From IMG/VR virus record IMGVR_UViG_3300025284_000066: a DNA stretch of 64,000 nucleotides. The stretch is one strand, 5' to 3'. A program made the translations under genes and the position numbers. This stretch comes from an uncultured virus (IMG/VR IMGVR_UViG_3300025284_000066) (lineage: Duplodnaviria; Heunggongvirae; Uroviricota; Caudoviricetes). Of this stretch, positions 14,741-63,852 are shown piece by piece (position 1 is the first letter of the stretch; each line of letters opens with the position of its first letter). The notes below the pieces were generated by a model that worked only from the letters and a program-made list of their open reading frames with translations, was not told the DNA's origin and did no database searches.

Positions 14741-15711
14741 CGCGACCTGTTCCCTATCCTGCAGACACCCGTGCGAAGGGCTGGCGCTTCGAGCTGGACC
14801 ACGAGCGCATCGAGCAGTCGGACACCTGGGCGCTGGCGCCTGCTGATGTGAAGCCGTGGCTGCTGATGCTTTGGGTCACGGCCTGGCGCCAGGAACCGTG
14901 CGGCTCGCTGCCCAACGAAGACGAGCTCATCGCCGTGCGCATCGGCATGCCCATGAAGACGTTCGCCAAGGTGCGCTCCAAGCTGATGCGCGGGTGGTGG
15001 GCGGCCGAGGACGGCCGCCTGTACCACGACACCGTGACGAAGCGCGTCCTGGAAATGCTGGCCGCCCGCGAGGCGGAGCGTCGCCGGAAGGCGGAGTACC
15101 GCCAGCGGAAGGAGGCGGAACGCAGATCGGACGCCAGTGGTGATCCGGATTTGTCCCACGGGACAACCGGCGGACACCAGCAGGACGACACCCGGAATGA
15201 CACCGGGAGAGACGACACCGGAACCAGAACCGGAACCAGTACCAGTAAAGAAGAAACCACCACCACTTCCCGAACTACGTCCGGATCGGTGGGGGGTGAT
15301 CGGCAAAGCCCGACGAGAGCCGGGGAGGCGTGCCGGGCCATGCGCAACAAAGGCATCGCAGACGTGAATCCGTCGAGTCCCGAGCTGCTGGCGCTCATCG
15401 ACAAGGGCGTGCCCGTCGAAACCTTCGAGGCCGCTGCCGACATCGCTGCGAAGTCCAAGCCGCCCAAGGGCTTCGCCTACCTGCTGGGCATCGTCAAGCG
15501 GCAGCTCGGCGAGGCCGCGGCCATCGCGTCCGGCGCCGGCATGCCCGAGAAGCCCTGGGACGAGAACCGCTCGACCATCGAAGCGAAGGGAGAGGAACTC
15601 GGCCTGGGCCGATGGAACGAGCACGACCTGAGCGTCAACCGCGAAACGTTCCCGCAATACACGGCCCGCGTCCGCCGGGCGGTGGAGCAACGACAAGGAG
15701 TACCCGCATGA
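14737..15711 (+). CDS. Phage replication initiator (YdaU/DUF1376-like)
   Basis: LLMLWVTAWRQEPCGSLPNEDELIA...GRLYH; low-complexity middle; position. Confidence 0.75.
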   Translation: MTRPVPYPADTRAKGWRFELDHERIEQSDTWALAPADVKPWLLMLWVTAWRQEPCGSLPNEDELIAVRIGMPMKTFAKVRSKLMRGWWAAEDGRLYHDTVTKRVLEMLAAREAERRRKAEYRQRKEAERRSDASGDPDLSHGTTGGHQQDDTRNDTGRDDTGTRTGTSTSKEETTTTSRTTSGSVGGDRQSPTRAGEACRAMRNKGIADVNPSSPELLALIDKGVPVETFEAAADIAAKSKPPKGFAYLLGIVKRQLGEAAAIASGAGMPEKPWDENRSTIEAKGEELGLGRWNEHDLSVNRETFPQYTARVRRAVEQRQGVPA

Positions 15712-15938
15712 GTACCGCACTCGCCATCGCCCAGGTGGCTGTCTCCGCGCAGCGCAACCTCCATCAGATCGCCACGTACGACCGCGAATTGCGGCAGCGC
15801 GGCGCGCTGGTCGCGGCGGTGGCACTGAGCCCCTACCGCGCGGTGGAGCGCGCCCGTCTCGATGTGTGCGCCAAGCACTTCGCCGCGCTGCAGCCCGCCA
15901 ACGACCTCGCTTTCGAGCAGAACCCGGAGCACGCATGA
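15708..15938 (+). CDS. Hypothetical protein
   Basis: AAGGAG RBS; ATGA coupling. Confidence 0.6.
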   Translation: MSTALAIAQVAVSAQRNLHQIATYDRELRQRGALVAAVALSPYRAVERARLDVCAKHFAALQPANDLAFEQNPEHA

Positions 15939-16462
15939 TCCCGTCGATTAATCCCTGGGATGCCGAGATCGAGTTGTTCGAGCAGCTGACGCTCGCGCGC
16001 CTGCTGAAGCACACCGAGCCAGAAGGCGAATGCCTCGCCTGGACGGGCCACGCCAACCTCGGCCGCAGCCCGCAGATCCGCCTCGGCGGCGCCAAGGGCC
16101 GGGCCTACAACGTCCGCCGCGTGCTGTGGGTGCTGACGCGCGGCAGCATCCGCGCCGACCGCGTGGTCACGGTGGACTGCGACTGCGAGTTGTGCGTTCA
16201 CCCCGATTGCCTCATTGCGGTCCATCAGTCGAAGCTGCAGAAGGGCCAACCGAAATCGCTCCTGGCATCGCGCCGCATCGCGTCCGCCCAGCGCAGGCTG
16301 TCACCGATCACCGAGGACATGGTTCGGGAGATCCGGGGCAGCACGATCCCGGCGGTGGAATTCGACCGGCGCTGGGGACTCGGCATCGGAACCTCTGCGC
16401 ACATCCGGTCCGGAGCGCGCCGCGCCCCGCTGGGCCTGGGCATGTTGGGAGGTGCCGCCTGA
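15935..16462 (+). CDS. His-Me finger (HNH-like, possibly degenerate) protein
   Basis: ECLAWTG...CDCELCVHPDCL resembles the CxxxxCVNPxHL motif. Confidence 0.65.
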   Translation: MIPSINPWDAEIELFEQLTLARLLKHTEPEGECLAWTGHANLGRSPQIRLGGAKGRAYNVRRVLWVLTRGSIRADRVVTVDCDCELCVHPDCLIAVHQSKLQKGQPKSLLASRRIASAQRRLSPITEDMVREIRGSTIPAVEFDRRWGLGIGTSAHIRSGARRAPLGLGMLGGAA

Positions 16463-33630: not shown

Positions 33631-33699
33631 TCGACACCTGAGCCGAGCGGGGCGGGGCCATGTGCTTCGCCCCTTCGTCACATCCAAGAGGAGCAACCC

Positions 33700-48636: not shown

Positions 48637-50655
48637 ATGCACGGCTTCAAACCCGCCACCAAGCGCGCCCAGGCGCAACACCTTGCCGAGGGAGGCCTTG
48701 TGCGCGGCTTGGTGCGCAAGGTGATGGGCATTCCCGAGCCCACAGACACGGGCGCCGCGGCGCCGGCGGCCACACCAGCTGCGCCGCCTCCCGCGCCAGC
48801 GCCGGCCCCCGAGAAGGCGATCACCCAGTACGCGGGCATGGGCGCGACCGAGCGTCGCATGAAGGCCATGGGCCTGAAAGACGGTGGGCCGGTGCGTGGG
48901 CCGGGCACCGGCACCTCCGACAGCATCGAAACCGAGGTTCGACCGGGCAGCTACATCATGCCGGCGGACTCCACCGAGCAGCTTGGCGAGGACGGCGTGG
49001 CTGCATTGGGCTTCAGCCCGGAGAAGGTGCCGGTGAACCTGAGCAACGGCGAATACCAGCTCCCGCCCGAGCACGTACATGCTGTCGGCGTGGAGGCGCT
49101 CGACGCGATCAAGGACGCTACCCATGCATCGGCCCCAGGCCCGCGCGGTTTCGCGCCGAGCGCGGCCGAACCGCCGGTATTCTTCGCCGACGGTGGGCTG
49201 GTTGATGAAGATCCCCGTAAGGCGCGCACCCCGCCACCCGCTGCTTCACTGGATGTCAGCGCCAGCATCCCTGCGCCCTTGCCGATGCTGACGGCCTCGC
49301 TGCCGCCCAGCCCGCAGGCGCTGCAGCTGGCCGCCAACGAGAGGGCCGCTGCCGCGCCCGCACCGGCGCCCTCGTCGCAGACGAGCCCACTGGCCCAGAC
49401 CCAAGGGGCCGCATTCGGCGTATTCAGGCGTGAGCCGACGGCGGGGACGCGAGGCGGCATGATGCAGCCCTACGTTGCAACCGGCCCCGCGTCGTTCGAG
49501 CCAGCAAAGGTGCAGGAGGGCACAGGACGGCTCGATGCATTCAACGATCCGCGCTCGACGTTGTTCAAGGGCGAGGCTGATGCGGCACCTGCGCCGACCA
49601 GCCGAGGATTCGCCGGTGTGGGCGAAGGCTGGGGCAGTGGCGCGAAGCCTGTGGCAACGACCGTCGCCCCGGCAGCGCCACCCGCGGTCCGCCCGGCTGC
49701 CGCCCCTGTAGTCGCGCCGACCGCACCTGCTGTCTCGAACGATGCACCGGCGAGCTCGGCGGCACCGGCTGCGAGCCAGGTCATGCCGGGCGTGTTCAGG
49801 CAGGGCAACAGCTACGGCGACTCGCCGGCCGCCGCCGCGGCGGGCTTCGCGCCACGCTCGGCGCCGAGCGCGCAGAACATGGCTGCGGCCGACGCGCTCG
49901 AGGCGCGTGGCATCGCAGAGCGAGCCGGTGAGCGAGCTGCTGCAGCTGGAGGCTCGGCAGCCGGGTTCGCACCTGGTAACGGCCTGACGGTGATCGGAGA
50001 CGACACCCACGCGGATCGTGTGCGCCGGAGCGCGTTCGGCGCGGCGAGCACGCCGTACCGAGGATCGCCAAACGGACAGCTCACAGCCAACCAGGTGCGT
50101 GTGCTGGCCGGCATGGACGAGGCAAACGGTCGAAACGCGCTCCAGCGCGACACCACCGCCGCTAACAATGCCGCTTCGCTGGAGCGCGAAGCGATCCAGC
50201 AGGCTGGCGCCTCCGGCCGGACAGCGGTGCAGGAGGCGGGCGCCAATGTTCGTGCGGGCGCTACCAACGATGTGCAGCGTGGCGAATTGGCCCTGCGGCA
50301 GGAGGCACAGGGGTTCCAAACTCGCGGCGCCCAGCGCGTGGAGAAGCTGTACGAGCAGTACGAGAAGGCCAAGCCCGAGGAGCGGGCGGCCATCGCAGAG
50401 CAGATCCGCACGATGACGGGCAAAGAGCACCCGAGCCGCTTCACCGTGGTGCCCGGCGGGCAGGAAATCGACCCGACCACCCAGCAATCCGTCACCAGGC
50501 CGGCGCGCGTCTTCAACAACCAGACCGGCCAGTTCGTCGAACAGGGTCAGGCGCCGCGAGCCGGCCTCCCTCCGGGGATGACCCGGCAGATTGGCACTTC
50601 CAACGGGAAGCCCGTCTACGAGGATGCACAGGGCAAACGGTTCATCGGCAGCTGA
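48637..50655 (+). CDS. Putative ejection (DNA transfer) protein
   Basis: GPGTGTSDSI and LSNGEY motifs; Ala/Pro-rich; directly upstream of the DarB-like gene. Confidence 0.75.
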   Translation: MHGFKPATKRAQAQHLAEGGLVRGLVRKVMGIPEPTDTGAAAPAATPAAPPPAPAPAPEKAITQYAGMGATERRMKAMGLKDGGPVRGPGTGTSDSIETEVRPGSYIMPADSTEQLGEDGVAALGFSPEKVPVNLSNGEYQLPPEHVHAVGVEALDAIKDATHASAPGPRGFAPSAAEPPVFFADGGLVDEDPRKARTPPPAASLDVSASIPAPLPMLTASLPPSPQALQLAANERAAAAPAPAPSSQTSPLAQTQGAAFGVFRREPTAGTRGGMMQPYVATGPASFEPAKVQEGTGRLDAFNDPRSTLFKGEADAAPAPTSRGFAGVGEGWGSGAKPVATTVAPAAPPAVRPAAAPVVAPTAPAVSNDAPASSAAPAASQVMPGVFRQGNSYGDSPAAAAAGFAPRSAPSAQNMAAADALEARGIAERAGERAAAAGGSAAGFAPGNGLTVIGDDTHADRVRRSAFGAASTPYRGSPNGQLTANQVRVLAGMDEANGRNALQRDTTAANNAASLEREAIQQAGASGRTAVQEAGANVRAGATNDVQRGELALRQEAQGFQTRGAQRVEKLYEQYEKAKPEERAAIAEQIRTMTGKEHPSRFTVVPGGQEIDPTTQQSVTRPARVFNNQTGQFVEQGQAPRAGLPPGMTRQIGTSNGKPVYEDAQGKRFIGS

Positions 50656-50678
50656 TGACGGGGCGCCGCAGAGCGCTC

Positions 50679-50718
50679 CCCTGTAGGGTTCGACGCACAG
50701 AGCGCCCGTCGGAAGACT
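50679..50718 (+). promoter_or_regulatory. Putative late promoter, copy 6 (leaderless giant-gene mRNA)
   Basis: CCCTGTAGGGTTCGAC-N18-AAGACT; ATG 6 nt later. Confidence 0.75.
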
Positions 50719-50724
50719 GGCGCA

Positions 50725-53700
50725 ATGGCTGGCGAAACTCTCAAGCCCTTCGACGGGCAACTCGATACCACACCGCACAACCTCACCCCGTTTTCGGGTG
50801 AGCTCGATCCGCCCGATGCAAAGCGCACCGTGCTCGGCACCGTAAAGGATGTCGGGGTCACGGCGCTGAAGGGCGCGGTCGGCCTTCCGCAGAGCGTCGT
50901 CGGCCTGGCTGACATCGTGACGGGCGGCCGCGCTGGCAAAGCTCTGGAGCAGGCCGGCGTCGGCTTCGAGGAGACACAGAAGTTCCTCGACGACCAATAT
51001 TCCGACGCGCAGAAGGCCGCCAACCGCAAGGTGCAGGCGGCCGATGGCTTCGTCGATACGGCCAAGACCATGCTGGAGAACCCCAGCACCATCGCTACCA
51101 GCGTGGGCGAGTCGATTCCACAGATGCTCGGCGGCGCGGGCGTCGCGCGCGGCTTGCTCAAGGTGGCGCCCAAGATTGCGCCGGCCATCGCTGGCGCCAT
51201 CGGTGAGGGCGTGCTGGGAGCGGGCTCGCAGGCCGAGCAGATCCGCCAAGAGACGCAGGACGGGTTGCTCACCCCGAAGCAGGCGGCTCTGTCCGCCGCG
51301 ACCGGTGCCGCTACTGCTGGCTTCGGTGCACTCGGCGGACGCCTGGCGCAGCGCCTTGGCATCGGCGATGCCGACACGATGCTGGCGCAGGGAGCCATCC
51401 ACGGCGCCGGGCCCGCCTCGCAGCGTTCGCTCGCGCGCCAGGTTGGCGCTGGCATGCTGTCCGAGGGCGTGCTCGAAGAGCTGCCGCAGTCGATGTCCGA
51501 GCAGGCGCTGCAGAACCTCGCGCTGGACAAGCCCGTCGGAGAAGGTGTCGGCAAGGCCGCCGCCGCCGGGTTGCTCGCGGGCGGCGCCATGGGCGGCGGG
51601 GCCGCGCTGTTGCACGGCGCGACTGGTCAGCATGCCCCGAATCAGGCGGAGCCCGGTAGCGCGGAGCGCGTGCCCGGCGAGCAGCTCTCGCTGTTGCCGG
51701 TGGACGAAGCTCCGGCAGCCGCGGCGGCGAGCGAGCTGCCCGCCGTTGCGGGTGGCCTGGCCAGCGTGCAGCGCACCTTCGATCCGCGCGACCCGGGCAG
51801 CCGGCCGCCGCTGGACGTGATGCCCACGGCCCCCACCGATGGAGTGGAGTTCGAGGCGGCGCCGCAGGTCGCGCGCGAGTTCAGCACGGGCAATCTTTCG
51901 CTCGCTGATGAAGCACAGCCCGTGCGCCCCTCCGAAAAGATGGGGCTGGACCCTGCAGCAGGCCCGCTGTCCACTGCCGCCGCGATGGCGGTGGATGGTG
52001 GCGCGCACGACGTGATGAACGCGGCCGCTCAACTCGCCGCTCAGGCCGAAGCCGCCGACGGCAAGGGCACGAAGCCGGCAGCAGCTTCTCCGGCACCCGC
52101 CAGTGTGCCGATGGCGAACGTCAACGCCGAAACCGGCGAGATCTCCGGACAACCGCAAGACCGAGAGGCCGAACTGCGGGCACGCCTGGAGTTCGTGCGC
52201 CAACAGGCCGCGTCGAACGGCTGGGACCAGCGCCTGATCGCCGAGCGCGACAGCGCGCGAGCTGAACTGGCCGCACTTGCGCCCGCTGCCGCAGCGCCGA
52301 CCAGCGTGCAGGAGGGCATCGCTCAAGCGCGCGCCCGCCGCGCAGCGCCCGAATCCGCACCGCAACCCAAAGGAGAAGCCCTTGGCACTCAAGCCGACCA
52401 AGCCCAGCAAGCAGGCACGCAACAAGCGCCGGCAGGAACAGAAGCGCCAGCAGCTGAGCCAATCGCGTCCGCCACAACGCTGACGCCCGCGCCGGCAGCA
52501 CCGGCTGTACCGAACGCGAAGCGCGAGAAGGCGGTGCGCCGCGTGGAAGAAGGGCGCGCATGGTTCTTGTCCCGCGACAAGGCGCAGTCCTTCGTGGACA
52601 CGTCGGGCCTCGCGGACACGCACGAAGTGGTGCCGGACAACCGCCGTTTCGTTGTGCAGGCCAAGGCCGAGCAGCCGGCACAGGATGCGCAGCCGCAAAC
52701 CGCTGCGCCGGCCGATCAGCTGGCGGACCTGCGCCGCCGACGCGCCGAGGCCGAGCCGGGCACGCCCCTGCGCCGCGACATCGATAACGACATCGCGGCG
52801 TTGGAGCGCGAACAGCAGCAAGCAGTTCGCCGGCCTGAAGCGGTAGCGCCGGTGGATGCTGCGGCGAACGAAGCCGCCACCAGCCCGCAGAACGACCTGC
52901 CCGAGCCTAGTCAGGCCCAGAAAGAGGCGGGCAACTACAAGATGGGCCACCTGTCCGGTGACGAGGTACAGGGCCTGCGCATCAGCGTGGAGAACCCGCA
53001 CGGCAGCACGCGCAGCGGCACCTCGCCGGACGGGACCGAGTGGAGCAACACGATGGCCGCGCACTACGGCTACGTGAAGGGCTCCGAGGCAGCAGACGGC
53101 GACCACGTGGATGTGTTCGTCGGGCCGGCAGCCGCGACAGCACCGACGGTCTACGTGGTGGACCAGATCAACGCGGATGGCTCCTACGACGAGGCCAAGG
53201 CGCTGATGGGGTTCAACAGCGAAGCCGAGGCCTTGGCCGCCTACAAGGGGAGTTACAACAAGGGCTGGAAGGTCGGTCCGGTCACCGCGATGTCGATGGA
53301 CGACTTCAAGGCTGCGCTCGCGGACGGGCGCCTGAAGAAGCCGCTCTCGTCCACATTGAGCGAGTCCGTGCGCGAATCCTCGCCCGCTCCAGCAGCGCAG
53401 CGCGCTACGACGATGGAGACGGCGCGCACCGCGCTGGCTTCGTACTTCGATTGGTATCTCAGCCGCAATCCGAAGGCATCCCGTCCGATGGGCGGGATCT
53501 ATCAGGGCAACAGCTTCACGCTCGACTCCGGCGGCGCGCCATTCACGAAGGCGGGCCAGGTGCAGGTGAACGGCTTTAAGGAACTGACCTTCAACTACAC
53601 GGCCGCGTGGAAAGAGGCTCAGTCGCGCGCCGCCGCAGCAGCGCCGGCCGCCGCCCCGATTGCTGCTACCAACGCAGGAGACGAAAATGGACGAAATGCA

Positions 53701-56700
53701 GGAACTGTACCGACCGAACGACTACCCGCCGCCGATCAAGGAAGCGATGCGCGCGATGCCGGCGCTGGCGACCGAGATCGCCAACCGGTGGATGCTCGGG
53801 TGGCCGAAGCGGGTGAAGGCGCTGATCGAGGCGAGCGAGTTCCTGCGGGCGCTGAAGGAGCAGGAGGAGGCCGAGCGGAGGGCGTACAGCGACTCCGGGA
53901 ATCGGCACCTGGCGAGGCACGAGATAGCCGAGTTGTACGGCCTGAGCGACAGTCCGCCGACGCTGTAGCCGACCCGGCGACCGCCGAGGCCTCGCCAAAG
54001 CCCGAGCTCGACCAGTCGGGCGACCACACGCTGGATGCCGACGATATCGGCAAGGGTGGGCTCACCAAGAAGTACCGCGACAACATCGCTGCCATCCGCA
54101 TCCTGAAGGCGCTCGCCAGCGAGAGCCGCAAGGCCACCCCGGAGGAGCGCAAGCAGATCGCGCGCTACGTCGGCTGGGGTGCGCTGAAGGGCGTGTTCGA
54201 CCCGCAGAACAAGCAGTGGGCCAAGGAATTCGCCGAGCTGCGCGAGTTGTTGACCGATGCCGAGTACAAGGCCGCTCGCGCGTCGATGCTGAACGCGCAC
54301 TACACGGCGCCGGTGGTGGTCAACGGCATCTACGATGCGCTCGAGCGCATGGGGTTCACCGCTGGCCGCGTTCTCGAACCGGCGGTGGGAACCGGCAACT
54401 TCTTCGGCCTGATGCCCGCGAGCATGCGCAAGCGCTCGCAGCTGCATGGCGTGGAGCTGGACCCGCTCACCAGCCAGATCGCGGCGGCGCTGTATCCGAG
54501 CGCCAAGGTGGCGCGGGCCACCGCGTTCCAGGACTTCCAGGCCCCGTCCGAGTACTTCGACCTGGCGGTGGGCAATCCGCCATTCGGCTCGGAGCCCATC
54601 GTCGATGACGACCGCTCGCCGTATTCGGGTTTCTCGATCCACAACTACTTCTTCGCCAAGAGCATCGACAAGCTGCGCCCCGGTGGCCTGCTGACTATGG
54701 TGGTGTCGCACAACTTCCTTGACGCCAAGAACGAAGCAGCACGGCAGTGGATCGCCGATCGGGCCAACCTGGTGGCAGCGGTCCGGCTGCCGCGAACCGC
54801 GTTCAAGGAGAACGCCGGCACCGACGTGGTGACCGACATCGTGGTGCTCCAGAAGAAAACGGAATCCGAGCGCGCGAACGGATTGGGCGATGCGGCGTGG
54901 GTGAAGGTCGGCCAGCAGACCCTCACCAACCCGAAGACCGGCGAGGCGACGCAGCACAACGTCAGCAGCTACTTCCTGACCAATCCCGATGCGGTGCTGG
55001 GCACGCCGGTGGCGGCCGGAGCGATGTATCGCCTGGGCGAGTACACGGTGGAGCCCTCTGGCGATCTGGCGCAACAGCTGAAGGCATGGGCCACCGCGCT
55101 CCCGGAAGACCTCTATCAGCCTGTGGAGCGCACGCACGAGCAGGAAGCCGCCGACGTGGTGGTGCCTGACGGTGTGAAGGTCGGTTCGTTCTACGTGGAC
55201 GACAGCGGCCGCGTGCAGATGCGCGGCCCGGATTCGCTGGGCAACCGAACGGCAGAGCCGTGGACGCCGCCCAACGTGAAGGCTGCCGAGCGCATGAAGG
55301 GGATGGTGGGCCTGCGCGACGCGCTGCGAGCACAGATGCGCCTGGAGCGCTCCCCGGACTCGACCGACGGACAGATCGAGCAGCACCGCCGCGAGTTGAA
55401 TCGCCTCTATGACGGGTTCCAGAGCAAGTACGGCTACCTGAACGACCCGACCAACCGCCGCATCTTCCTGGACGACACCGAGTCGGCCCTGGTGCTGGCG
55501 CTGGAGTTCGACTACGACCGTGGCGTGAGCAAGGCGGTGGCCGAGCGCGAGGACATCGAACCGCGTGCGCCCAAGGCGATCAAGGCCGACATCTTCGCGC
55601 GGCGCGTGATGTTCCCGCCCGCGGACAACATCAAGGTGAGCAACGCCAAGGACGCGCTGCTGGCCAGCCTGAACTACAAGGGCCGGCTGGATGCCGCCTA
55701 CATGGCGACGCTGTACGACAAGTCTCCGGCCCAGATCGTGTCGGAGCTTGGTGACGTGGTGTATGCCGACCCGGTGAATGGGCTCGTGATGGCCGACGAA
55801 TATCTGTCGGGCGACGTGAAGACGAAGCTGGCCGAAGCAGAAGCCGCCGCGCGTGACGACCCGGCGCTGCGCCGCAACGTGGAGGCCCTGCGCAAGGTCA
55901 TTCCGGCCGACAAGCGGCCGAGCGAGATCCACGCGGCCATGGGCGCGGCTTTCATTCCACCGGAGCTGTTCCAGCAGTTCGCCAAGGAAGTGACCGGCGC
56001 CGAAGCGCGCGTCACCTACCTGCGCGCTACCGGCCAATGGCTGGTGGACTACACGTCCCAGCCCAACCCGGCGCTCAACACGGCGAAGTGGGGCATTGGC
56101 AGGATGACCGCGCAGAACATCTTCATGCGCACGATGGCCGGCCAGGGCGTGGTGGTCACGGACACCATCCGCGACCCGAACGGTGGTACCCGCACCGTGG
56201 TGCTGGAGAAGGAAACGGAGGCCGCGCGCGAGAAGCAGGCCGCGATGAAGGCCGAATGGCAGCGCTGGCTGTGGAGCGACCCTGAGCGCGCCGACCGTGT
56301 GGCGGGCATCTACAACGACAAGATGAACCGCATCGTGGTGCGGCGCTTCGATGGCTCGCACATGACCTTCCCGGGCATGTCGCCCGCGATGGAGTTGCTG
56401 CCGCACCAGAAAGATGCCGTATGGCGCGCGCTTCAGCAGCGCCAGATCCTGCTGGATCACGTCGTCGGTGCTGGCAAGACCTTCGAGGTTGTGGCTGCCA
56501 TCATGGAAATGCGCCGGCTGGGCATCGCGCGAAAGCCAATCGTCACGGTGCCCAACCACCTCACCCTGCAGTGGCGCAGCGAGTTTTCGCGCCTGTACCC
56601 GGCGGCCAACGTGCTGGCGGCCACGCCCGATGACTTCACCAAGGGCAACCGGGAGAAGTTCTTCTCCAAGATCGTCACCGGCGACTGGGATGCCGTCATC

Positions 56701-59700
56701 ATCGGCCACTCCAGCCTGAAGAGGATCGCGCTGCCGGCCGAAACGGAAAAGGCCGTGCTGGAAGAGCAGATTACCGAGCTGGCCGACAGCATCGGCGAAA
56801 TGAAGCGCGCCCGCGGCGACCGGAATGTCGTGCGCGACATGGAGAGCATCAAGGCCCGCCTGGAAGCCCGCATGAAGCAGCGCGTGCAAGCCCTTGGCGA
56901 GCGCGACAAGGTGGTGACCTTCGACGAGCTCGGCGTCGATGCTTTCGCCATCGACGAGCTGCACGAGTTCAAGAACCTCTTCTACAACTCCACCATGGAG
57001 CGCGTGCCCGGCATGGGCAACCCCGGCGGCTCGGACAAGGCGTTCGACCTGTTCGTGAAGGCGCAGTACCTCTTCGACGCGCTGGGGGACAAGGCGCCGC
57101 TGATGGGCGCGACCGGCACGCCGGTTTCCAACAGCCTGGTGGAAATGTTCAATATGCAGCGGTTCCTGCAGTACCCGACGCTGAAGGCGCAGGGCCTGCA
57201 CGTCTTCGACGCCTGGGCCAAGCAGTTCGGCAGCGTGGAATCGCTGTACGAGGTGTCGCCGTCTGGGACCGGCTACCGCCAGGCCTCGCGCTTCGCCAAG
57301 TTCAAGAACCTGCCGGCGCTGATGGGCATGTACCAGACCTTCGCCGACACGGTGACGCTGGACGATCTGAAGGCGCAAGAGGAAGCCCGAGGCCGCACAT
57401 TCCCGGTGCCGCAGGTGGCCGGCGGCCGCCCGGTGAACGTGGTGGCGAAGCGCTCGCCGGAGGTGGCCAACTTCATGGGCGTGCCGCAACTGGACATCCA
57501 GGGCGGGCGAGTGCAGTTCGGGTTCAACCCGGCCGCTGGGGAGCGCGCAGTTATCGAGAAGGCCGAGGACGGCAACAGCTGGCGCGCCGAAACCCGCGTG
57601 CCGCAGCCCGACGAGAAGGAGATTCGGCAGCTGATCGGCTCGGCCAAGACCGAAGAGGATGCCAAGCTGCTGGTGGTCGAAGCCGCCCTGTCGCCCAAGA
57701 TCAAGGTGGACCCGAAGTCGATCCTCGGCCAGTTCGCCGACCTGAAGCGGCTGACGAAGGAAACGAAGGGGAAGGTCAACGCGCTGTCGCTGACCGGCCA
57801 AGCCAACAAGGCGGGCTTGGACTTCCGCCTGATCGACCCGTCGGCGCCCGACTTCGAGGGCTCGAAGATCAATCTCGCCGTCGACCGCATGCTGGGCACC
57901 TACCAGAAGTGGACCAGCGACCGAGGAACGCAACTGGTCTTCTGCGACCTGTCCGTGCCCCTCTCGGCACGCAGCGGCTTCGGCAGCAAGGAGCGGCGCG
58001 TGTACGTGCGAGACGACGGCGCCCTGGTGCACAAGAAGGGCACCATGCACACGGTTCGCGGCCACGAAGACTTGCCGTTCTTCGTGGTGAAGGAGGGCGG
58101 CAAGGACGCCAAGGCCTTCGCCATCTACGACGCCGCCACGGGCTTGCGCGTGCACGCCGGCCTGCCGGCCAAGGGCATTGCGACCGACTGGGCGGCGCAG
58201 GCCCTGAACGACGACGGCCGCCGCCAGCGCTGGATCGACGCCCGCGACCGCATCGGCGACCTCCAGCAGGACGAGATCGACGACTACAACAACGCCAACG
58301 AGATCGACACCGAGGAAACCGAATCGATCTCGCTGGCCGACATCGCAGGCATGTCGGGAGCCACCGCGTTCTCGGTGTACGACGACATCAAGGGCAAGTT
58401 GATGGCGCGCGGCGTGCCGGAGCGCGAAATCGCCTTCATCCACGACTACAACACGCCCGCAGCGAAGGACAAGCTGTTCAAGGCGGTGAATCGGGGCGAC
58501 ATCCGCTTCCTGCTGGGCTCCACGCCGAAGATGGGCGCCGGCACCAACGTGCAGGAGCGCCTGGTCGGGCTGCATCACATTGACGCGCCCTGGCGCCCGA
58601 GCGACCTGGAGCAACGCGAGGGCCGCATCATCCGCCGCGGCAATGCGCTCTATGCTCGTGACCCGGATGGTTTCGAGGTGGAAATCTACCGCTACGCCAC
58701 CGAGCAGACCTACGACACCCGCCGGTGGCAGATCCTGGAGCACAAGGCTCGCGGCATCGAGCAGCTGCGTAAGTACGACGGCACCCTCAACGAGATCGAC
58801 GACATCGAGGGGGAGGCCGCCAACGCGGCCGACATGAAGGCCGCCGCCTCGGGCGACCCGCTCATCCTGGAAGAAACACGGCTCCGCAACGATGTGCGCC
58901 GCCTCGAATCACTGCAAGCCTCCCACGCGGACGAAACGGCTTCGATGGTGCGCCAGGCGCGCGACCAACAACGCTTCGCGCAAGACTGGGGCCCGAAGGA
59001 GCTGGAAACGTTCCGAGGTCTGCAGGCTGCCGCCGAGGCCAACCCGGTGCCCAAGGATGGCTTCGCTGGCCTGACCGTTGCCGGGAAGACGATCACCGAC
59101 CGCGAAGCGGCTATCAAGGCCGTCAAGCGGGGCATCGATCGTGTGTTCGTAAGCGGCGGGCAGGAGGAGTTCCAGTACCGAGGCGTGACCTTCATGCTGG
59201 AAGGCACGCCCGACCACGTGGAGCTCAATTCGCCCACCGGTGGGCTGGATTCCTATCGGCCGGCCAGGGACGTGCTGCCGTCGGCGGCGGGCATCCTGAC
59301 CCGCTTCGGCAACTACATCAACCGTCTCCCGGCGCACATCGTCGACCTCGATGCGAAGATCACGGAAGCGAAGCAGGCGGCAGTGCAATTGCGCGAGCAG
59401 GCCGGCAAGCCATTCGCCCAGGCGAAGGAGCTGGAGTCAGCACGCGAGGCACATCGCCGGGTGCAGCGCCGGCTCGTGGCGAAGGGGCCGGACATCCCGC
59501 TGAACCAGCGACCCGCCCTGCAGAAGGCCATGGCCGAGCAGCGCCAGCAGCTCATCGAGCAGGGGTTCGGGGATACGCTCGAGGAGTTCGGCGGTGGCGC
59601 CGACGATGCGCAGTTCCGCCGGGACGGGACCGAAATGCTGTCGCCCGAGGCAGCCAGAGCCATGCGGGCGCTCCTGCCCAACTACTCGCCGCAGGCTCGC

Positions 59701-62700
59701 GCACAGGCTGTAGCGTCTGTGACCAAGACGGTGGAGGCGATTCGCGCCGGTTGGGGCAACGGGCCCGAGGTGATCGTGGCGTTCGACATGGGCGACCCGG
59801 TTGTGCCCGGGGCGGCCCGCCGCGCGGACCTGAAGCAGCGCAGCGGCGGCGCACGGGGCGCTCCCGAGGGCTTCTACTACCGTGGCAAGGCCTACTTGAT
59901 GGCCTCGCGGCTGCCCACGGCCAACGATGCGGCGCGCGTGCTCTTTCACGAAGTACTCGGCCACCACGGGCTGCGCGGCCAGTTCGGCAAGGGGCTGGAT
60001 GACGTGCTGAACCAGATCGGCACCATGCGCCGCGCCGACGTGGACGCGAAGATCAATGAATACGGGCTGCGCGGCGTCAACAAGCTCGACCGGCGCGCCG
60101 CGGCGGAGGAAGTCCTGGCCGAAATGGCGCAGACCCATCCCGAACTGCACTTCGTGCGTCGCGCCATCGCCGCGATCCGCACCTGGCTGCGCGAGCACGT
60201 GCCGGGCTTCAGCAACCTGCGGATGACGGACGACGAGATCGTGCGCAACTTCATCCTGCCGGCTCGGCGCTTCGTTGAGCAGGGCGGCCCGGACGGCGGG
60301 CCCAGCGACGGGCTGCGCTTCAGCCGTGGTGACGCGGGCCCCGCCTCGACCAACAGCCTCGATGCCCCCATCGCCGCCGACGACGACGGTGTAGCGAACT
60401 TCTGGCACTGGTACAGTGGGCAGGATGGAAGCCTCAAAGACACCCGAAGCGGCACGCAAGGATCTGGAGGAACTGCTGGCGGAGCTGCCGCCGGTGGGCC
60501 CGGCCGAGATGGCGGCGCATCTGGGCGACTCGGACCCGTTGATGCGCAAGGCCGCCCGCTCGTATTTTTCCACGGCACGCGAGACGACTTCACCGCGTTC
60601 GATACCGAGCACCCAAACCGAAAAGACGTAGGCTGGCTTGGCCGCGGCGTCTACGGTGCGAGCGACCCGGCGGACGCCAACTACTATGCCGGCGCAAAGC
60701 GCGGCGGCGGTGGGCAGCGCGTCATGCCGCTGTACTTCGCGGTCACGAACCCCTACGTTGCCACGCCGGAAATCAAGGCCCGTCTGAAGCGGGCCACGCA
60801 GGCGCAGGTCGATCGCTTCACGGCAAACCTGCGCGCGATGGGGCACGACGGCGTGACGCTCACTGCCGAAGATGGCTCGGTGGAGATCGTCGCGTTCGAT
60901 CCCAGCCAGGTGAAATCGGCCATCGGCAACAGTGGGGCATTCGACGCTGGCACCTCGGACATCCGGTTCAGCCGATCCACGGTGCAGGACTTCGCCAAGA
61001 AGGCCACCGCCGAGCTCAATAAGACTTTCAATGCGCCCGGCAAGTTGTCCTGGTGGCACAAGACCGTGGGCACCATGTACAACCTCGCGGAGCGTTCGCC
61101 AGCCTTCAAGGCGGTGTTCGACTCAGCGCAAGGGTTCGTCGACGACGTGAGCTTCTACGCCAACGACGCGGCCGAACTGGCGCCCAAGCTGCTGCCGAAG
61201 CTGGAGACGTGGCGCGACATCAAGAAAGCGCCGGTGGCCGCGGCCGACAACGCCGCAGTGGCGAAGCCAGTCTTCGAAGGCACGCTGACCTGGGCGCGAG
61301 ACGAACAGGGCAAGCCGGTACCGGTGCAGTCGCTCATCGACGCGGCGGCCGAGCTGTCGGCCGACCAGAAGGCGCAGCGCCTGCTGCGAAACGGGCAGAT
61401 CGACGAGCGCATGCTGAAGGCATGGCAGGGCATGCCCCTGGAGTCCTACGAGAAGGCTATCAATACGCGCTTCGAGTCGCGCATGCTGCAGCCGGGCGTC
61501 GTCTGGACCGATGCGGAGCTGCGCTCCATGTTCAAGCTCTCGGACGATCAGATCGCGCTCTACCACGAGTTCCGCGAGACGACCGACCGGAGCCTGGACA
61601 CGATGGCGCGCGCCGACATGCTGCGTTTCGTGGGCGACGATGCCAAGGGCATGCGTGGCATGGTGATGGATGCGCCGGATGCCCAGGCGGCGGCCGTGCT
61701 GCTGCGCGATCACCTGGTGCAGCTGGCCAACGAGCAGCCTGACCGCGCGACCCAGATCCTGAATACCGCCAACGGCATCATCGACCGGGCCGACAAGGTG
61801 CGCGACCTGCAGGCCCGTGGGTATGCGCCGCTGTCACGCTTCGGCCGCTACTCGGTCGACGTGGTGGACGCTGCCGGCGAGCGGCAGTACTTCGGCCTGT
61901 TCGAGACGGCACGCGAGGCCAACAATATGGCCGCCCAGATGCGGGAGGAGTTCGGCGATGCCACCGTCACCCAGGGCACACTGTCGGAGGAGGCCTTCAA
62001 GCTCTTCGCTGGCGTGACGCCCGAGACGCTGGAACTCTTCGGCAATGCCCTCGGCCTCGATTCGACCGGTGACAGCGCGCAGGACCAGGCTTTCCAGGAA
62101 TACCTGCGGCTGACGAAGACCAACCGCAGCGCAATGCGGCGGCTGATCCATCGCAAGGGCATCGCCGGTTTCAGCGAAGACGTGGGCCGCGTGCTGGCTT
62201 CCTTCATCTACTCGAACGCGCGCCAGACGGCCGCCGGCCTGCACATGGGCGACCTCGGCGAGGCGGTGCAGGCCATCCCGAAGGAACAGGGCGAGCTGAA
62301 AGATGCCGCCGTGCGCCTGGCCGACTATGTGAAGAACCCGCAGGAGGAGGCGCAGGCGGTGCGCGGGCTGCTGTTCGCGCAGTACCTGGGTGGCTCGGTG
62401 GCGTCGGCGTTCGTGAACATGACCCAGCCTATCGCGGTGACGATGCCGTGGCTGAGCCAGTACGGCGGCGCGCGCGCGGCGGCCGCGCAGATCGGCCGGG
62501 CCGCGAAGAACATCGCCACGCGCGGCTTCGAATACGAACCGGATCTCGCTGCGGCGCTCAAGCGCGCCGAGGACGAGGGGACCGTGAGCCCGCAGGAGGT
62601 GCACCAGCTGATGGCGCAGGCGCGCGGCGCGAGCTCGCTGCGCTCCGGCGATGGCACGCGCGGCGGCGAGCTGCGCGCGATGGGCCAGAACGCGCTGTCG

Positions 62701-63852
62701 CGCTTGTCGCTGGCATGGGGGAAGCTCTTCGGCGCCGCCGAGCAGGTGAATCGCCGCATCACCTTCATCGCGGCCTACCGAACGGCGAAGGCGCAGGGCA
62801 TCGAAGACCCGGCAGGATTTGCTCGCAAGGCGATCACCGAGACGCAGTTCCTCTACTCGAAGGCGAACAAGATGGAGTGGGGCAGGGGGGCGATCGGCGG
62901 CACGCTGATGACCTTCAAGACCTACTCGGTGGCTTACCTCGAGCTGCTGCACCGCATGTACACGCAGGGTGGGCCAGAGGGCAAGCGCGCCGCGCTGCTG
63001 GCGCTGGGCATGCTGATGCTGATGGGCGGCGCCGGCGGGCTGCCGTTCGAGGAAGACCTGGAGGATGCGGTCGACGCGCTGGCGCAGATGCTCGGCTACA
63101 ACTTCTCGACGAAGAAGGCCCGCCAGGAATTTCTGGAGAGCCTGCTGCCGAAGCCGATCGCGCAGTTCATCGACAAGGGCGTGAGCGGTCTGCCCGGCGC
63201 GCCGCTGGATGTGTCGGGCCGCCTCGGCATGGGCAACCTGATTCCGGGCACGGGCCTGCTGCTGGAGAAGACCAGCCACGCGCGCGACCTGCTGGAGATC
63301 GCGGGCCCGGCCGGCGACTTCGCCAGCCGCATCCTCTCCGGCGGCCGCAGCATGCTCACTGGCGACGTGGGCGCCGGGCTGCTGGAAATGTCGCCCGCAG
63401 CGGTGCGCAACGCGGCCAAGGGCGTGGACATGGCCGCGACCGGCATGTATCGGGATGCCAAGGGCTACAAGGTGCTGGACACGAACACGCTGGAGGCGGC
63501 CCTCAAGGGCATCGGCTTCCAGCCGAACAGCGTGGCCACCATCCAGGAGGCGAACGGCATCAACCAGGGCGCGAAGGCGTTCTACAACCTGCGTGCGCAG
63601 GAGATCCGGGCGCTGTGGGCACAGGGCGTGTTCGAGGGCGACCAGCAGAAGGTGCAGGAAGCCCGCGACCAGGTTGCCGCGTGGAACCGGAAGAACCCTG
63701 AGCAGCCGATGCTCGTACGCATCCCCGACGTGATGCGCCGGGTGCGGGAAATGCGCAAGTCCAAAGATGAGCGGATCGCTGATACCGCGCCGCGGGCGAT
63801 GCGTGCTCAGATGCGCGAAGAGGCGGCTCGGGCACGTGCCGACACCATGTAG
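50725..63852 (+). CDS. Giant DarB-like polyvalent virion protein (InPase-like, N6 MTase, SNF2 helicase, zincin, ART-like, PLxRFG)
   Basis: ENP...HYGY...DGDHVDVF; EPAVGTG...GNPPF; VGAGKT...DELH...ATGTP...QREGRIIR; HEVLGH; FHGT...GVY...GHDGV...EIVAF; PLSRFG. Confidence 0.92.
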   Translation: MAGETLKPFDGQLDTTPHNLTPFSGELDPPDAKRTVLGTVKDVGVTALKGAVGLPQSVVGLADIVTGGRAGKALEQAGVGFEETQKFLDDQYSDAQKAANRKVQAADGFVDTAKTMLENPSTIATSVGESIPQMLGGAGVARGLLKVAPKIAPAIAGAIGEGVLGAGSQAEQIRQETQDGLLTPKQAALSAATGAATAGFGALGGRLAQRLGIGDADTMLAQGAIHGAGPASQRSLARQVGAGMLSEGVLEELPQSMSEQALQNLALDKPVGEGVGKAAAAGLLAGGAMGGGAALLHGATGQHAPNQAEPGSAERVPGEQLSLLPVDEAPAAAAASELPAVAGGLASVQRTFDPRDPGSRPPLDVMPTAPTDGVEFEAAPQVAREFSTGNLSLADEAQPVRPSEKMGLDPAAGPLSTAAAMAVDGGAHDVMNAAAQLAAQAEAADGKGTKPAAASPAPASVPMANVNAETGEISGQPQDREAELRARLEFVRQQAASNGWDQRLIAERDSARAELAALAPAAAAPTSVQEGIAQARARRAAPESAPQPKGEALGTQADQAQQAGTQQAPAGTEAPAAEPIASATTLTPAPAAPAVPNAKREKAVRRVEEGRAWFLSRDKAQSFVDTSGLADTHEVVPDNRRFVVQAKAEQPAQDAQPQTAAPADQLADLRRRRAEAEPGTPLRRDIDNDIAALEREQQQAVRRPEAVAPVDAAANEAATSPQNDLPEPSQAQKEAGNYKMGHLSGDEVQGLRISVENPHGSTRSGTSPDGTEWSNTMAAHYGYVKGSEAADGDHVDVFVGPAAATAPTVYVVDQINADGSYDEAKALMGFNSEAEALAAYKGSYNKGWKVGPVTAMSMDDFKAALADGRLKKPLSSTLSESVRESSPAPAAQRATTMETARTALASYFDWYLSRNPKASRPMGGIYQGNSFTLDSGGAPFTKAGQVQVNGFKELTFNYTAAWKEAQSRAAAAAPAAAPIAATNAGDENGRNAGTVPTERLPAADQGSDARDAGAGDRDRQPVDARVAEAGEGADRGERVPAGAEGAGGGRAEGVQRLRESAPGEARDSRVVRPERQSADAVADPATAEASPKPELDQSGDHTLDADDIGKGGLTKKYRDNIAAIRILKALASESRKATPEERKQIARYVGWGALKGVFDPQNKQWAKEFAELRELLTDAEYKAARASMLNAHYTAPVVVNGIYDALERMGFTAGRVLEPAVGTGNFFGLMPASMRKRSQLHGVELDPLTSQIAAALYPSAKVARATAFQDFQAPSEYFDLAVGNPPFGSEPIVDDDRSPYSGFSIHNYFFAKSIDKLRPGGLLTMVVSHNFLDAKNEAARQWIADRANLVAAVRLPRTAFKENAGTDVVTDIVVLQKKTESERANGLGDAAWVKVGQQTLTNPKTGEATQHNVSSYFLTNPDAVLGTPVAAGAMYRLGEYTVEPSGDLAQQLKAWATALPEDLYQPVERTHEQEAADVVVPDGVKVGSFYVDDSGRVQMRGPDSLGNRTAEPWTPPNVKAAERMKGMVGLRDALRAQMRLERSPDSTDGQIEQHRRELNRLYDGFQSKYGYLNDPTNRRIFLDDTESALVLALEFDYDRGVSKAVAEREDIEPRAPKAIKADIFARRVMFPPADNIKVSNAKDALLASLNYKGRLDAAYMATLYDKSPAQIVSELGDVVYADPVNGLVMADEYLSGDVKTKLAEAEAAARDDPALRRNVEALRKVIPADKRPSEIHAAMGAAFIPPELFQQFAKEVTGAEARVTYLRATGQWLVDYTSQPNPALNTAKWGIGRMTAQNIFMRTMAGQGVVVTDTIRDPNGGTRTVVLEKETEAAREKQAAMKAEWQRWLWSDPERADRVAGIYNDKMNRIVVRRFDGSHMTFPGMSPAMELLPHQKDAVWRALQQRQILLDHVVGAGKTFEVVAAIMEMRRLGIARKPIVTVPNHLTLQWRSEFSRLYPAANVLAATPDDFTKGNREKFFSKIVTGDWDAVIIGHSSLKRIALPAETEKAVLEEQITELADSIGEMKRARGDRNVVRDMESIKARLEARMKQRVQALGERDKVVTFDELGVDAFAIDELHEFKNLFYNSTMERVPGMGNPGGSDKAFDLFVKAQYLFDALGDKAPLMGATGTPVSNSLVEMFNMQRFLQYPTLKAQGLHVFDAWAKQFGSVESLYEVSPSGTGYRQASRFAKFKNLPALMGMYQTFADTVTLDDLKAQEEARGRTFPVPQVAGGRPVNVVAKRSPEVANFMGVPQLDIQGGRVQFGFNPAAGERAVIEKAEDGNSWRAETRVPQPDEKEIRQLIGSAKTEEDAKLLVVEAALSPKIKVDPKSILGQFADLKRLTKETKGKVNALSLTGQANKAGLDFRLIDPSAPDFEGSKINLAVDRMLGTYQKWTSDRGTQLVFCDLSVPLSARSGFGSKERRVYVRDDGALVHKKGTMHTVRGHEDLPFFVVKEGGKDAKAFAIYDAATGLRVHAGLPAKGIATDWAAQALNDDGRRQRWIDARDRIGDLQQDEIDDYNNANEIDTEETESISLADIAGMSGATAFSVYDDIKGKLMARGVPEREIAFIHDYNTPAAKDKLFKAVNRGDIRFLLGSTPKMGAGTNVQERLVGLHHIDAPWRPSDLEQREGRIIRRGNALYARDPDGFEVEIYRYATEQTYDTRRWQILEHKARGIEQLRKYDGTLNEIDDIEGEAANAADMKAAASGDPLILEETRLRNDVRRLESLQASHADETASMVRQARDQQRFAQDWGPKELETFRGLQAAAEANPVPKDGFAGLTVAGKTITDREAAIKAVKRGIDRVFVSGGQEEFQYRGVTFMLEGTPDHVELNSPTGGLDSYRPARDVLPSAAGILTRFGNYINRLPAHIVDLDAKITEAKQAAVQLREQAGKPFAQAKELESAREAHRRVQRRLVAKGPDIPLNQRPALQKAMAEQRQQLIEQGFGDTLEEFGGGADDAQFRRDGTEMLSPEAARAMRALLPNYSPQARAQAVASVTKTVEAIRAGWGNGPEVIVAFDMGDPVVPGAARRADLKQRSGGARGAPEGFYYRGKAYLMASRLPTANDAARVLFHEVLGHHGLRGQFGKGLDDVLNQIGTMRRADVDAKINEYGLRGVNKLDRRAAAEEVLAEMAQTHPELHFVRRAIAAIRTWLREHVPGFSNLRMTDDEIVRNFILPARRFVEQGGPDGGPSDGLRFSRGDAGPASTNSLDAPIAADDDGVANFWHWYSGQDGSLKDTRSGTQGSGGTAGGAAAGGPGRDGGASGRLGPVDAQGRPLVFFHGTRDDFTAFDTEHPNRKDVGWLGRGVYGASDPADANYYAGAKRGGGGQRVMPLYFAVTNPYVATPEIKARLKRATQAQVDRFTANLRAMGHDGVTLTAEDGSVEIVAFDPSQVKSAIGNSGAFDAGTSDIRFSRSTVQDFAKKATAELNKTFNAPGKLSWWHKTVGTMYNLAERSPAFKAVFDSAQGFVDDVSFYANDAAELAPKLLPKLETWRDIKKAPVAAADNAAVAKPVFEGTLTWARDEQGKPVPVQSLIDAAAELSADQKAQRLLRNGQIDERMLKAWQGMPLESYEKAINTRFESRMLQPGVVWTDAELRSMFKLSDDQIALYHEFRETTDRSLDTMARADMLRFVGDDAKGMRGMVMDAPDAQAAAVLLRDHLVQLANEQPDRATQILNTANGIIDRADKVRDLQARGYAPLSRFGRYSVDVVDAAGERQYFGLFETAREANNMAAQMREEFGDATVTQGTLSEEAFKLFAGVTPETLELFGNALGLDSTGDSAQDQAFQEYLRLTKTNRSAMRRLIHRKGIAGFSEDVGRVLASFIYSNARQTAAGLHMGDLGEAVQAIPKEQGELKDAAVRLADYVKNPQEEAQAVRGLLFAQYLGGSVASAFVNMTQPIAVTMPWLSQYGGARAAAAQIGRAAKNIATRGFEYEPDLAAALKRAEDEGTVSPQEVHQLMAQARGASSLRSGDGTRGGELRAMGQNALSRLSLAWGKLFGAAEQVNRRITFIAAYRTAKAQGIEDPAGFARKAITETQFLYSKANKMEWGRGAIGGTLMTFKTYSVAYLELLHRMYTQGGPEGKRAALLALGMLMLMGGAGGLPFEEDLEDAVDALAQMLGYNFSTKKARQEFLESLLPKPIAQFIDKGVSGLPGAPLDVSGRLGMGNLIPGTGLLLEKTSHARDLLEIAGPAGDFASRILSGGRSMLTGDVGAGLLEMSPAAVRNAAKGVDMAATGMYRDAKGYKVLDTNTLEAALKGIGFQPNSVATIQEANGINQGAKAFYNLRAQEIRALWAQGVFEGDQQKVQEARDQVAAWNRKNPEQPMLVRIPDVMRRVREMRKSKDERIADTAPRAMRAQMREEAARARADTM
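52382..52483 (+). CDS. Candidate nested +1-frame basic peptide (33 aa)
   Basis: AAAGGAG RBS 6 nt before TTG; MALKPTKPSKQARNKRRQEQKRQQLSQSRPPQR. Confidence 0.35.
   Translation: MALKPTKPSKQARNKRRQEQKRQQLSQSRPPQR
53687..53968 (+). CDS. Nested +1-frame gene (93 aa) inside the giant ORF
   Basis: AGGAG RBS 6 nt before ATG; globular-looking helical protein, while the host frame is a low-complexity linker. Confidence 0.7.
   Translation: MDEMQELYRPNDYPPPIKEAMRAMPALATEIANRWMLGWPKRVKALIEASEFLRALKEQEEAERRAYSDSGNRHLARHEIAELYGLSDSPPTL
60425..60631 (+). CDS. Nested +1-frame gene (68 aa) at the start of the ART-like domain
   Basis: Extended -10 TGgTACAGT 7 nt before ATG; host frame is a Gly-rich insertion here. 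Confidence 0.5.
   Translation: MEASKTPEAARKDLEELLAELPPVGPAEMAAHLGDSDPLMRKAARSYFSTARETTSPRSIPSTQTEKT

Follow-up and report, generated by a model that had tools for sequence, protein, structure and literature searches.

Can one stretch of phage DNA encode two proteins in two overlapping reading frames, and if so, what does the smaller product do? This question is raised by a 64,000-nucleotide sequence of an uncultured virus of the class Caudoviricetes (IMG/VR record IMGVR_UViG_3300025284_000066), which was analyzed as a whole and is referred to below as the window. Within the gene of a 4,375-amino acid (aa) DarB-like polyvalent protein, directly before the region encoding a methylase and a helicase, lies a complete open reading frame (ORF) of 93 aa. 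Convincing cases of nested genes are infrequent in bacteria and phages. A preliminary description, made from the nucleotide sequence, had proposed that an AGGAG motif six bases before an ATG opens this ORF in the +1 frame, that the host frame over the same span is a linker rich in G, A, D and R, and that the methylase region begins soon after the nested stop codon. The features below agree with all three points.

50725..63852, + strand: host gene encoding the 4,375-aa DarB-like polyvalent protein (ORF and Pfam domains)
53676..53680, + strand: Shine-Dalgarno (SD) motif AGGAG, 6 bases 5′ of the nested ATG (53687)
53687..53968, + strand: nested gene, 93 aa, stop codon TAG, +1 frame of the host ORF, five predicted helices, net charge -3
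53686..53967, + strand: host-frame linker over the nested gene, with few hydrophobic residues; it must remain stop-free
54022..54990, + strand: LPD36 (GXGU near 54172) and N6-adenine methyltransferase (NPPF near 54574), from Pfam Eco57I and motifs
56434..58641, + strand: SWI2/SNF2 ATPase lobes (SNF2-rel_dom, aa 1904-2016; Helicase_C, aa 2566-2639, just below its cut-off)

The nested ORF has the attributes of an embedded gene: its own ribosome-binding site, start and stop codons, and a position fully within another ORF in a shifted frame. Over its span, G, A, D and R make up 61% of the host-frame residues (38% in the whole protein) and large hydrophobic residues 11% (26% in the whole protein), while the conserved LPD36-methylase block begins approximately 55-80 bases past the nested stop. 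The host protein combines LPD36 with a GXGU motif, an NPP(Y/F) adenine methylase and a SWI2/SNF2 ATPase in one chain, as is characteristic of DarB-like proteins; the motif definitions were taken from section 14 of PMC5512222.

Selection on both reading frames

The two frames differ in the codon positions at which relatives vary. Over the nested ORF, four close relatives (372 codon pairs) show 75, 26 and 13 differences at host codon positions 1, 2 and 3, respectively, whereas the rest of the giant gene presents the mirror image, with position 3 dominating. The seven other SD-led out-of-frame ORFs of the giant gene all lack this flip (an inner start of the nested gene excepted). The ratio of nonsynonymous to synonymous substitution rates (dN/dS), pooled over 12 hand-picked pairs for a 59-codon core, with four of the pairs sharing the window's sequence, is 0.25 for the nested frame and 1.6 for the host frame. 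We attribute the latter value to selection on the nested frame, which it mirrors, and not to positive selection. The methylase control gave 0.20, a figure inflated by two mis-anchored pairs. The proposal in the preliminary description that selection acts on the nested frame is upheld by both the codon positions and the dN/dS values. The same text had suggested a check for stop codons in close relatives: the frame is open, and nested in the same relative frame, in 30 of 30 viral relatives (37-100% identity).

The host frame is constrained as well. Of 11 well-anchored pairs, 8 show less synonymous change in the nested frame than in the methylase. Altogether 158 loci were examined (here and below, L with a number denotes a locus), 153 of which had a full-length match, and 94 were distinct at 90% identity; five were too short to class. 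Of the distinct loci, 58 have a methylase downstream, and all of these keep the host frame free of stops over the small ORF, whereas approximately 9 would be expected to do so under random synonymous coding; the relatives are not independent, and several of the loci are AT-rich (39-43% GC), with a simulated chance below 1 in 400. The host frame continues into the methylase in 57 of the 58. We conclude, from comparison of the sequences of relatives, that one DNA stretch encodes two proteins, both under selection.

These data bear on the view that the small ORF arises by chance from the host coding, or that a programmed frameshift fuses its product to the methylase-helicase, both of which we consider very improbable. 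According to the simulation, GC-rich coding can leave the host frame open by chance in up to approximately 55% of cases, which would suit a by-product, but the frame is open in 58 of 58 loci, including those with 39-43% GC. A frameshift would find a precedent in the record of phage PBC5, where an ORF of the sister family (described below) forms the C-terminus of a large upstream ORF, but Atu_ph08, a relative of PBC5, is continuous. In the PBC5 locus (L240, 1-3452) orf33 ends in the nested frame, so that the record fuses the small protein to upstream domains, either by a frameshift or by an old sequencing error. Slippery heptamers were considered and rejected as the basis of a fusion: the window's ORF contains none, and those present in 15 of 73 copies lie at varied places and in varied frames.

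In 68 of 78 copies the start follows an SD word of at least four bases, a count that includes near-identical copies, takes the start with the best SD in each case and has no shuffle control. No sigma-70-like promoter was found in the region 50300-54300. AlphaFold predicts five helices for the 93-aa protein, with a predicted local distance difference test score (pLDDT) of 84 and a predicted template modelling score (pTM) of 0.74. Protein searches returned 115 (E≤0.001, query included) and 138 relatives, all unnamed or annotated as hypothetical. Neither Pfam nor PHROGs assigned the protein to a family, the ESM Atlas yielded hypothetical clusters only, and sequence searches of the PDB gave no credible match. 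Fold searches with its own model returned nothing clear, the best score being VIA Z 4.8, and nothing at E≤0.001 with Foldseek. Distant members of the family retain no invariant set of catalytic-looking residues. On the sequence evidence, the 93-aa ORF is almost certainly a real gene.

The act of translating the nested frame might matter more than its product, by tuning ribosome traffic into the methylase-helicase part or by coupling to an inner start. The strong SD motif directly before the enzymatic part is compatible with such a function, which is nevertheless distinctly improbable: purifying selection acts at the level of residues, the predicted fold is confident, no host-frame start codon follows right after the nested stop in the window, and copies standing alone remain conserved.

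Occurrence at methylase-helicase genes

Loci were also collected by a search with the methylase only, and the best 80 of 154 were taken. They were scored with profiles of the 93-aa family, of a second unnamed nested family (the sister family) and of a TnpV-like set, the latter two built partly from the same 80 loci. A nested +1-frame match of at least 20 bits lies upstream in 75 of the 80 loci; one locus is cut by the contig end and four have no match. The 25 loci with at least 60% identity all carry the 93-aa family (24 nested, the other being the one cut by the contig end). The 55 more distant loci comprise 51 with a nested match (37 to the sister profile and 14 to the TnpV-like profile) and the four without.

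Among 12 named phage records (picks from the match list, with P1 added), eight score above 100 bits: 8P, PBC5, PEp14, VvAW1, SopranoGao, Itty13, Atu_ph08 and Mwe-JY07. Phage 8P (76% identical), whose host is Pseudomonas stutzeri, offers a cultured test case. Phages CSP3, Gervaise and Y7 have an SD-led candidate ORF with little or no profile score. None of the named phage records annotates the nested ORF as a gene of its own, and the gene recurs in cultured phages whose records list the giant gene only. Experiments that delete or truncate a darB-like gene are complicated by this, since the hidden gene would be lost along with it.

The nested gene is present in six of ten plasmid records, pTet has a weak candidate, and three have none in the flank examined. 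In three plasmid records, by contrast, the small gene is annotated and the methylase is given a start beyond it, although the methylase frame is open across the small gene. In plasmid-like loci only approximately 15-60 host codons precede the small gene, and they often include a QxxLF-like stretch. Stretches of the QxxLF type, or QLSLL, are encoded by the host frame beside the nested gene at the N-termini of L045, L047, L056, L066 and L248, and at aa ~322 in the window; we take them to resemble sliding-clamp-binding motifs. One of the plasmid copies, nested in the SNF2 gene of a Bacillus plasmid, encodes a full TnpV (62.5 bits). The candidate of pTet, a common plasmid of Campylobacter (L264, 1992-2468), is a 159-aa SD-led ORF nested in the SNF2 gene, with weak profile scores.

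Other arrangements were also observed. Two diverged tandem nested copies occur in one host ORF in L022, L023, L026, L027 (~9700 and 10000) and L044 (2136 and 2505). In L011 and L032 (~10750) and in L056 (~10520) the host ORF stops soon after an intact nested gene, and methylase homology goes on downstream. In L054 (9271-10407) the small gene is nested in an ORF with a KfrB domain, not in a methylase-helicase ORF, and lies just 5′ of a C5 methylase-KfrB gene.

Kinship, origin and possible role

Comparison of the profiles of the 93-aa family (215 sequences) and the sister family (116) with hhalign gave an E-value of 1.2e-4, a better result than any of 59 block shuffles or the reversed profile. 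In cross-profile scoring, 63 of the 116 sister sequences exceeded 10 bits, against none for the reversed profile, and three plasmid ORFs bridge the two families at 31-36 and 12-13 bits. Both structural models consist of a proline-ended helix, a 9-residue helix, a 3-residue turn, a long helix and a short helix. Both families are acidic, with mean net charges of -2.7 and -7.3. The sister family resembles the TnpV-like set with a profile probability of 89-95%; the direct comparison of the 93-aa family with that set (E 0.061) is not significant. Three of 29 nested ORFs at distant loci pass the Pfam cut-off for TnpV, and 16 of 29 list TnpV at E≤0.1. A TnpV-like ancestry of the 93-aa family is therefore probable on sequence grounds. 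In Streptococcus suis, TnpV-carrying mobilisable elements insert preferentially into the snf2 gene of an integrative and conjugative element (ICE) (PMC9815147), and a functional tie between TnpV and the helicase is possible.

A further relative may be DUF1896. The best solved match of the sister model is PG0816 (2apl_A; Z 8.6, root-mean-square deviation 2.0, 69 aligned residues, 20% identity), followed by a match at Z 6.2. PG0816 is presumably a member of DUF1896 (PF08989). 2apl is not among the best 50 matches of the 93-aa protein's own model, and a match lower down is possible. A scan with a methylase motif found 10 loci, eight of them with the methylase; in all eight of these Bacteroidetes-type loci the methylase match is preceded, at a distance of 7-13 bases, by the end of a separate gene, which encodes DUF1896 in 7 of 7 tested. 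DUF1896 was searched for in two proteobacterial genomes and found in neither. Because fold and position coincide, kinship with DUF1896 is a good lead, not proof.

The small gene is probably the older of the two readings, with the host linker overprinted on it. The small protein appears to belong to an old folded group with stand-alone members, which would make the low-complexity host linker the newer reading; the preliminary description, in which the small gene was overprinted inside the giant one, thus probably has the order reversed. Originally the methylase-helicase gene would have had the small gene as a distinct neighbour on its 5′ side, an arrangement still seen for DUF1896 in Bacteroidetes-type elements. 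The methylase gene may then have extended 5′ through it in the -1 frame, often left open by GC-rich coding, gaining a short leader first (plasmids) and virion-type N-terminal domains later (phages). Reading through a neighbouring gene in another frame would be a route for the growth of polyvalent proteins.

The capsid gene at 31792 and the SU10 adaptor gene at 33660, both upstream of the host gene, identify the window as phage. The 8P homolog of the host gene is annotated as a structural protein, the JC1 homolog was counted among virion proteins (PMC9144972), and P1 DarB is packaged by means of an N-terminal signal (PMC9024508). The LPD36-methylase-SNF2 dyad was proposed to travel with the DNA and to methylate it during translocation (PMC5512222). 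In our favoured reading, to which we give a probability of about 0.45, the 93-aa protein is a dedicated accessory partner of the LPD36-methylase-SNF2 module, acting as a chaperone or a brake. One mRNA would serve both frames, so the synthesis of both proteins would coincide in the cell that assembles virions or passes the element on. There the small protein would bind the module, keeping it soluble or inactive until it is packaged or exported, and it would not accompany the giant protein into the next cell, where the latter would methylate incoming DNA. Service to the module is the simplest reason why a small acidic protein stays directly before it across phyla, nested or not.

Several observations weigh against such a partnership or against the kinship invoked for it. 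The pairing of the small gene with a methylase is not obligatory, since a DarB-type methylase is missing from the vicinity of 31 of 89 classifiable distinct copies and P1 darB works without a nested ORF before LPD36 (PMC5512222); the expectation of the preliminary description that homologs stand next to methylase-helicase genes holds for the 75 of 80 methylase-anchored loci, but not for these cases. The role of inhibitor, chaperone or antitoxin that the description had named for such a partner is hypothetical. In 21 of the 31 methylase-less copies the open host frame has been lost, yet the small gene is intact. Neighbours of the stand-alone copies scanned include genes for a relaxase-LPD7 protein, an Rv2179c-like exonuclease and a phosphoesterase, and restriction or Hachiman genes. 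No small gene was found within approximately 1.9 kb upstream in pTi, an IncC plasmid and pVAPA1340, which may reflect the short flank, because gut ICE-type loci have TnpV-like matches further upstream. Once two frames are interlocked, linkage by itself may also preserve gene order. As to kinship, the 93-aa protein has no match to TnpV (PF14198, cut-off 27 bits), and neither has any of 71 family members at E≤1; the hhalign probability between the 93-aa and sister families is only 55%, which leaves the TnpV link indirect. The Z of 8.6 is modest for an all-helical model, the sequence link to DUF1896 is not significant (hhalign E 0.31 and 0.41), and there is no Pfam match to it in the 93-aa family. 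Finally, TnpV was found in mobilisable transposons, with a postulated role in excision (PMC3158075).

The stand-alone copies may retain traces of a nested past. The open host frame persists in 10 of the 31 methylase-less copies, against 2.1 expected, and in some of them a few residues resembling the start of LPD36 lie right at the stop. On a tree built by a quick method from 91 columns, in which many forks are open, the nested/stand-alone label changes 18 times, and strongly supported branches make at least 10 of these changes unavoidable; the hypothesis that all stand-alone copies form one clade is rejected (approximately unbiased test, p-AU 5e-11). This pattern suggests that the gene was released from nesting repeatedly.

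The main alternative, credible though unlikely, is an independent function: the small protein would serve mobile elements against host defences or in control of the host, for example as an acidic blocker of a host enzyme, and would be carried inside the methylase-helicase gene only because the two genes are interlocked and co-expressed. Stand-alone copies that arose many times and persist among relaxase, nuclease and defence genes would be expected of such a factor, as would the small size and acidity of the proteins, and DUF1896 has been reported beside AcrIIA9 homologs, as was ArdA (PMC6739104). The position directly before the methylase is, on the other hand, held across very different elements, separate genes included, and the block of virion genes that holds the phage copy would be a poor site for an entry-stage factor unless the protein is packaged.

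A role on the DNA of the element itself, as an accessory of excision or transfer, is improbable. Phage 8P carries an integrase and several stand-alone copies follow relaxase genes, which would fit, but the gene is tied to the methylase and not to an integrase. The models are all-helical and acidic, unlike Xis, which is a basic winged-helix protein. The proposal derives from TnpV of Tn4451, which was postulated to act in excision by its likeness to lambda Xis (PMC3158075).

Should the partnership reading be extended, TnpV, DUF1896/PG0816 and the two unnamed nested families would form one ancient accessory group dedicated to DarB-type methylase-SNF2 enzymes, the enzyme gene having grown through its neighbour, with hidden, unannotated regulators in a substantial proportion of the DarB-like genes of phages, plasmids and ICEs. 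This broad proposal is doubtful as a whole. If it is true, polyvalent genes would routinely carry several hidden genes in their linkers, and a hidden regulator would control when the delivered enzyme is active or loaded. TnpV and DUF1896, two families of putative function, gain a concrete shared hypothesis.

Other hidden reading frames and known systems

The remaining features of the giant gene considered here, including two further candidate nested ORFs, are as follows.

52382..52483, + strand: candidate nested ORF 1, a 33-aa basic peptide with a TTG start and a strong SD motif, +1 frame
52912..53319, + strand: InPase domain (aa 730-865; Pfam PF18823, E 2.6e-47)
60425..60631, + strand: candidate nested ORF 3, 68 aa, +1 frame, its 3′ end overlapping the start of the ART domain
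60541..60942, + strand: ART-PolyVal domain (Pfam PF18760, E 8.9e-25)

Together with the 93-aa gene, these ORFs had been taken to indicate that each enzymatic domain travels with a nested partner. The motif of ORF 1 recurs in 11 of 39 giant hosts, in six distinct versions, three of them ATG-started; the related peptides are 23-33 aa long and lie at varied distances 5′ of the main nested gene, and a local codon flip spans 52339-52490. ORF 3 is kept in the closest relatives only (L003, L007, L008 and L031). At its site, L009 (~15700-16000) carries another ORF, which is longer and resembles it over a short stretch, and ORF 3 is absent before the ART matches of L011, L013, L029 and L073. The idea of such a wider system holds only in part, and neither candidate shows a partner for each enzyme.

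SD-led +1-frame ORFs of 55-80 aa with a protein-like make-up were also seen in other giant genes, those of L104, L108 and L242 (approximately 950-770 bases before LPD36) and in L143 and L149 (approximately 980-815). Long minus-strand ORFs overlie the giant gene at 49246-53106 (1,286 aa) and 53722-58743 (1,673 aa), and their length varies widely in relatives, as expected of shadow frames of GC-rich coding.

No description of the nested gene was found in the literature, where titles and the starts of abstracts were covered (supplements, including the alignments of PMC5512222, and most subscription papers lay outside this coverage), and the passages of PMC5512222 covered do not mention a nested gene. 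The Dar system of P1 is similar in that the LPD36-methylase-SNF2 dyad resides in a large phage protein (PMC5512222), but P1 darB has no nested ORF before LPD36. P1 Ulx was considered as a relative of the nested families and ruled out, with scores below 0. The Rz1-in-Rz spanin genes, found in the same kind of phage, likewise comprise a whole gene with its own start within a gene of the same strand (PMC9144972). The present case differs from Rz and Rz1, which are known partners in lysis, in that the partnership is putative, the outer gene encodes a polyvalent protein of 4,375 aa and relatives of the nested gene also stand alone.

DUF1896/PG0816 (PF08989, PDB 2apl) lies directly 5′ of the same type of methylase-helicase and its N-terminal part matches the sister model with a modest Z, but it is encoded by a separate gene, not a nested one, and is longer (142 profile positions). 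TnpV (PF14198), known from Tn4451 and Firmicute mobile elements, is also a small helical mobile-element protein; nested relatives at the same site pass its cut-off, and a helix-Pro-helix-Gly-long-helix pattern connects the 93-aa family with these relatives by way of the sister family. It differs in having been described as a stand-alone gene with a postulated role in excision, and the 93-aa protein misses the Pfam model. Embedded genes, TnpV and DarB were thus already known; the nested gene at this site, judged by its conservation among relatives, is real, widespread and overlooked.

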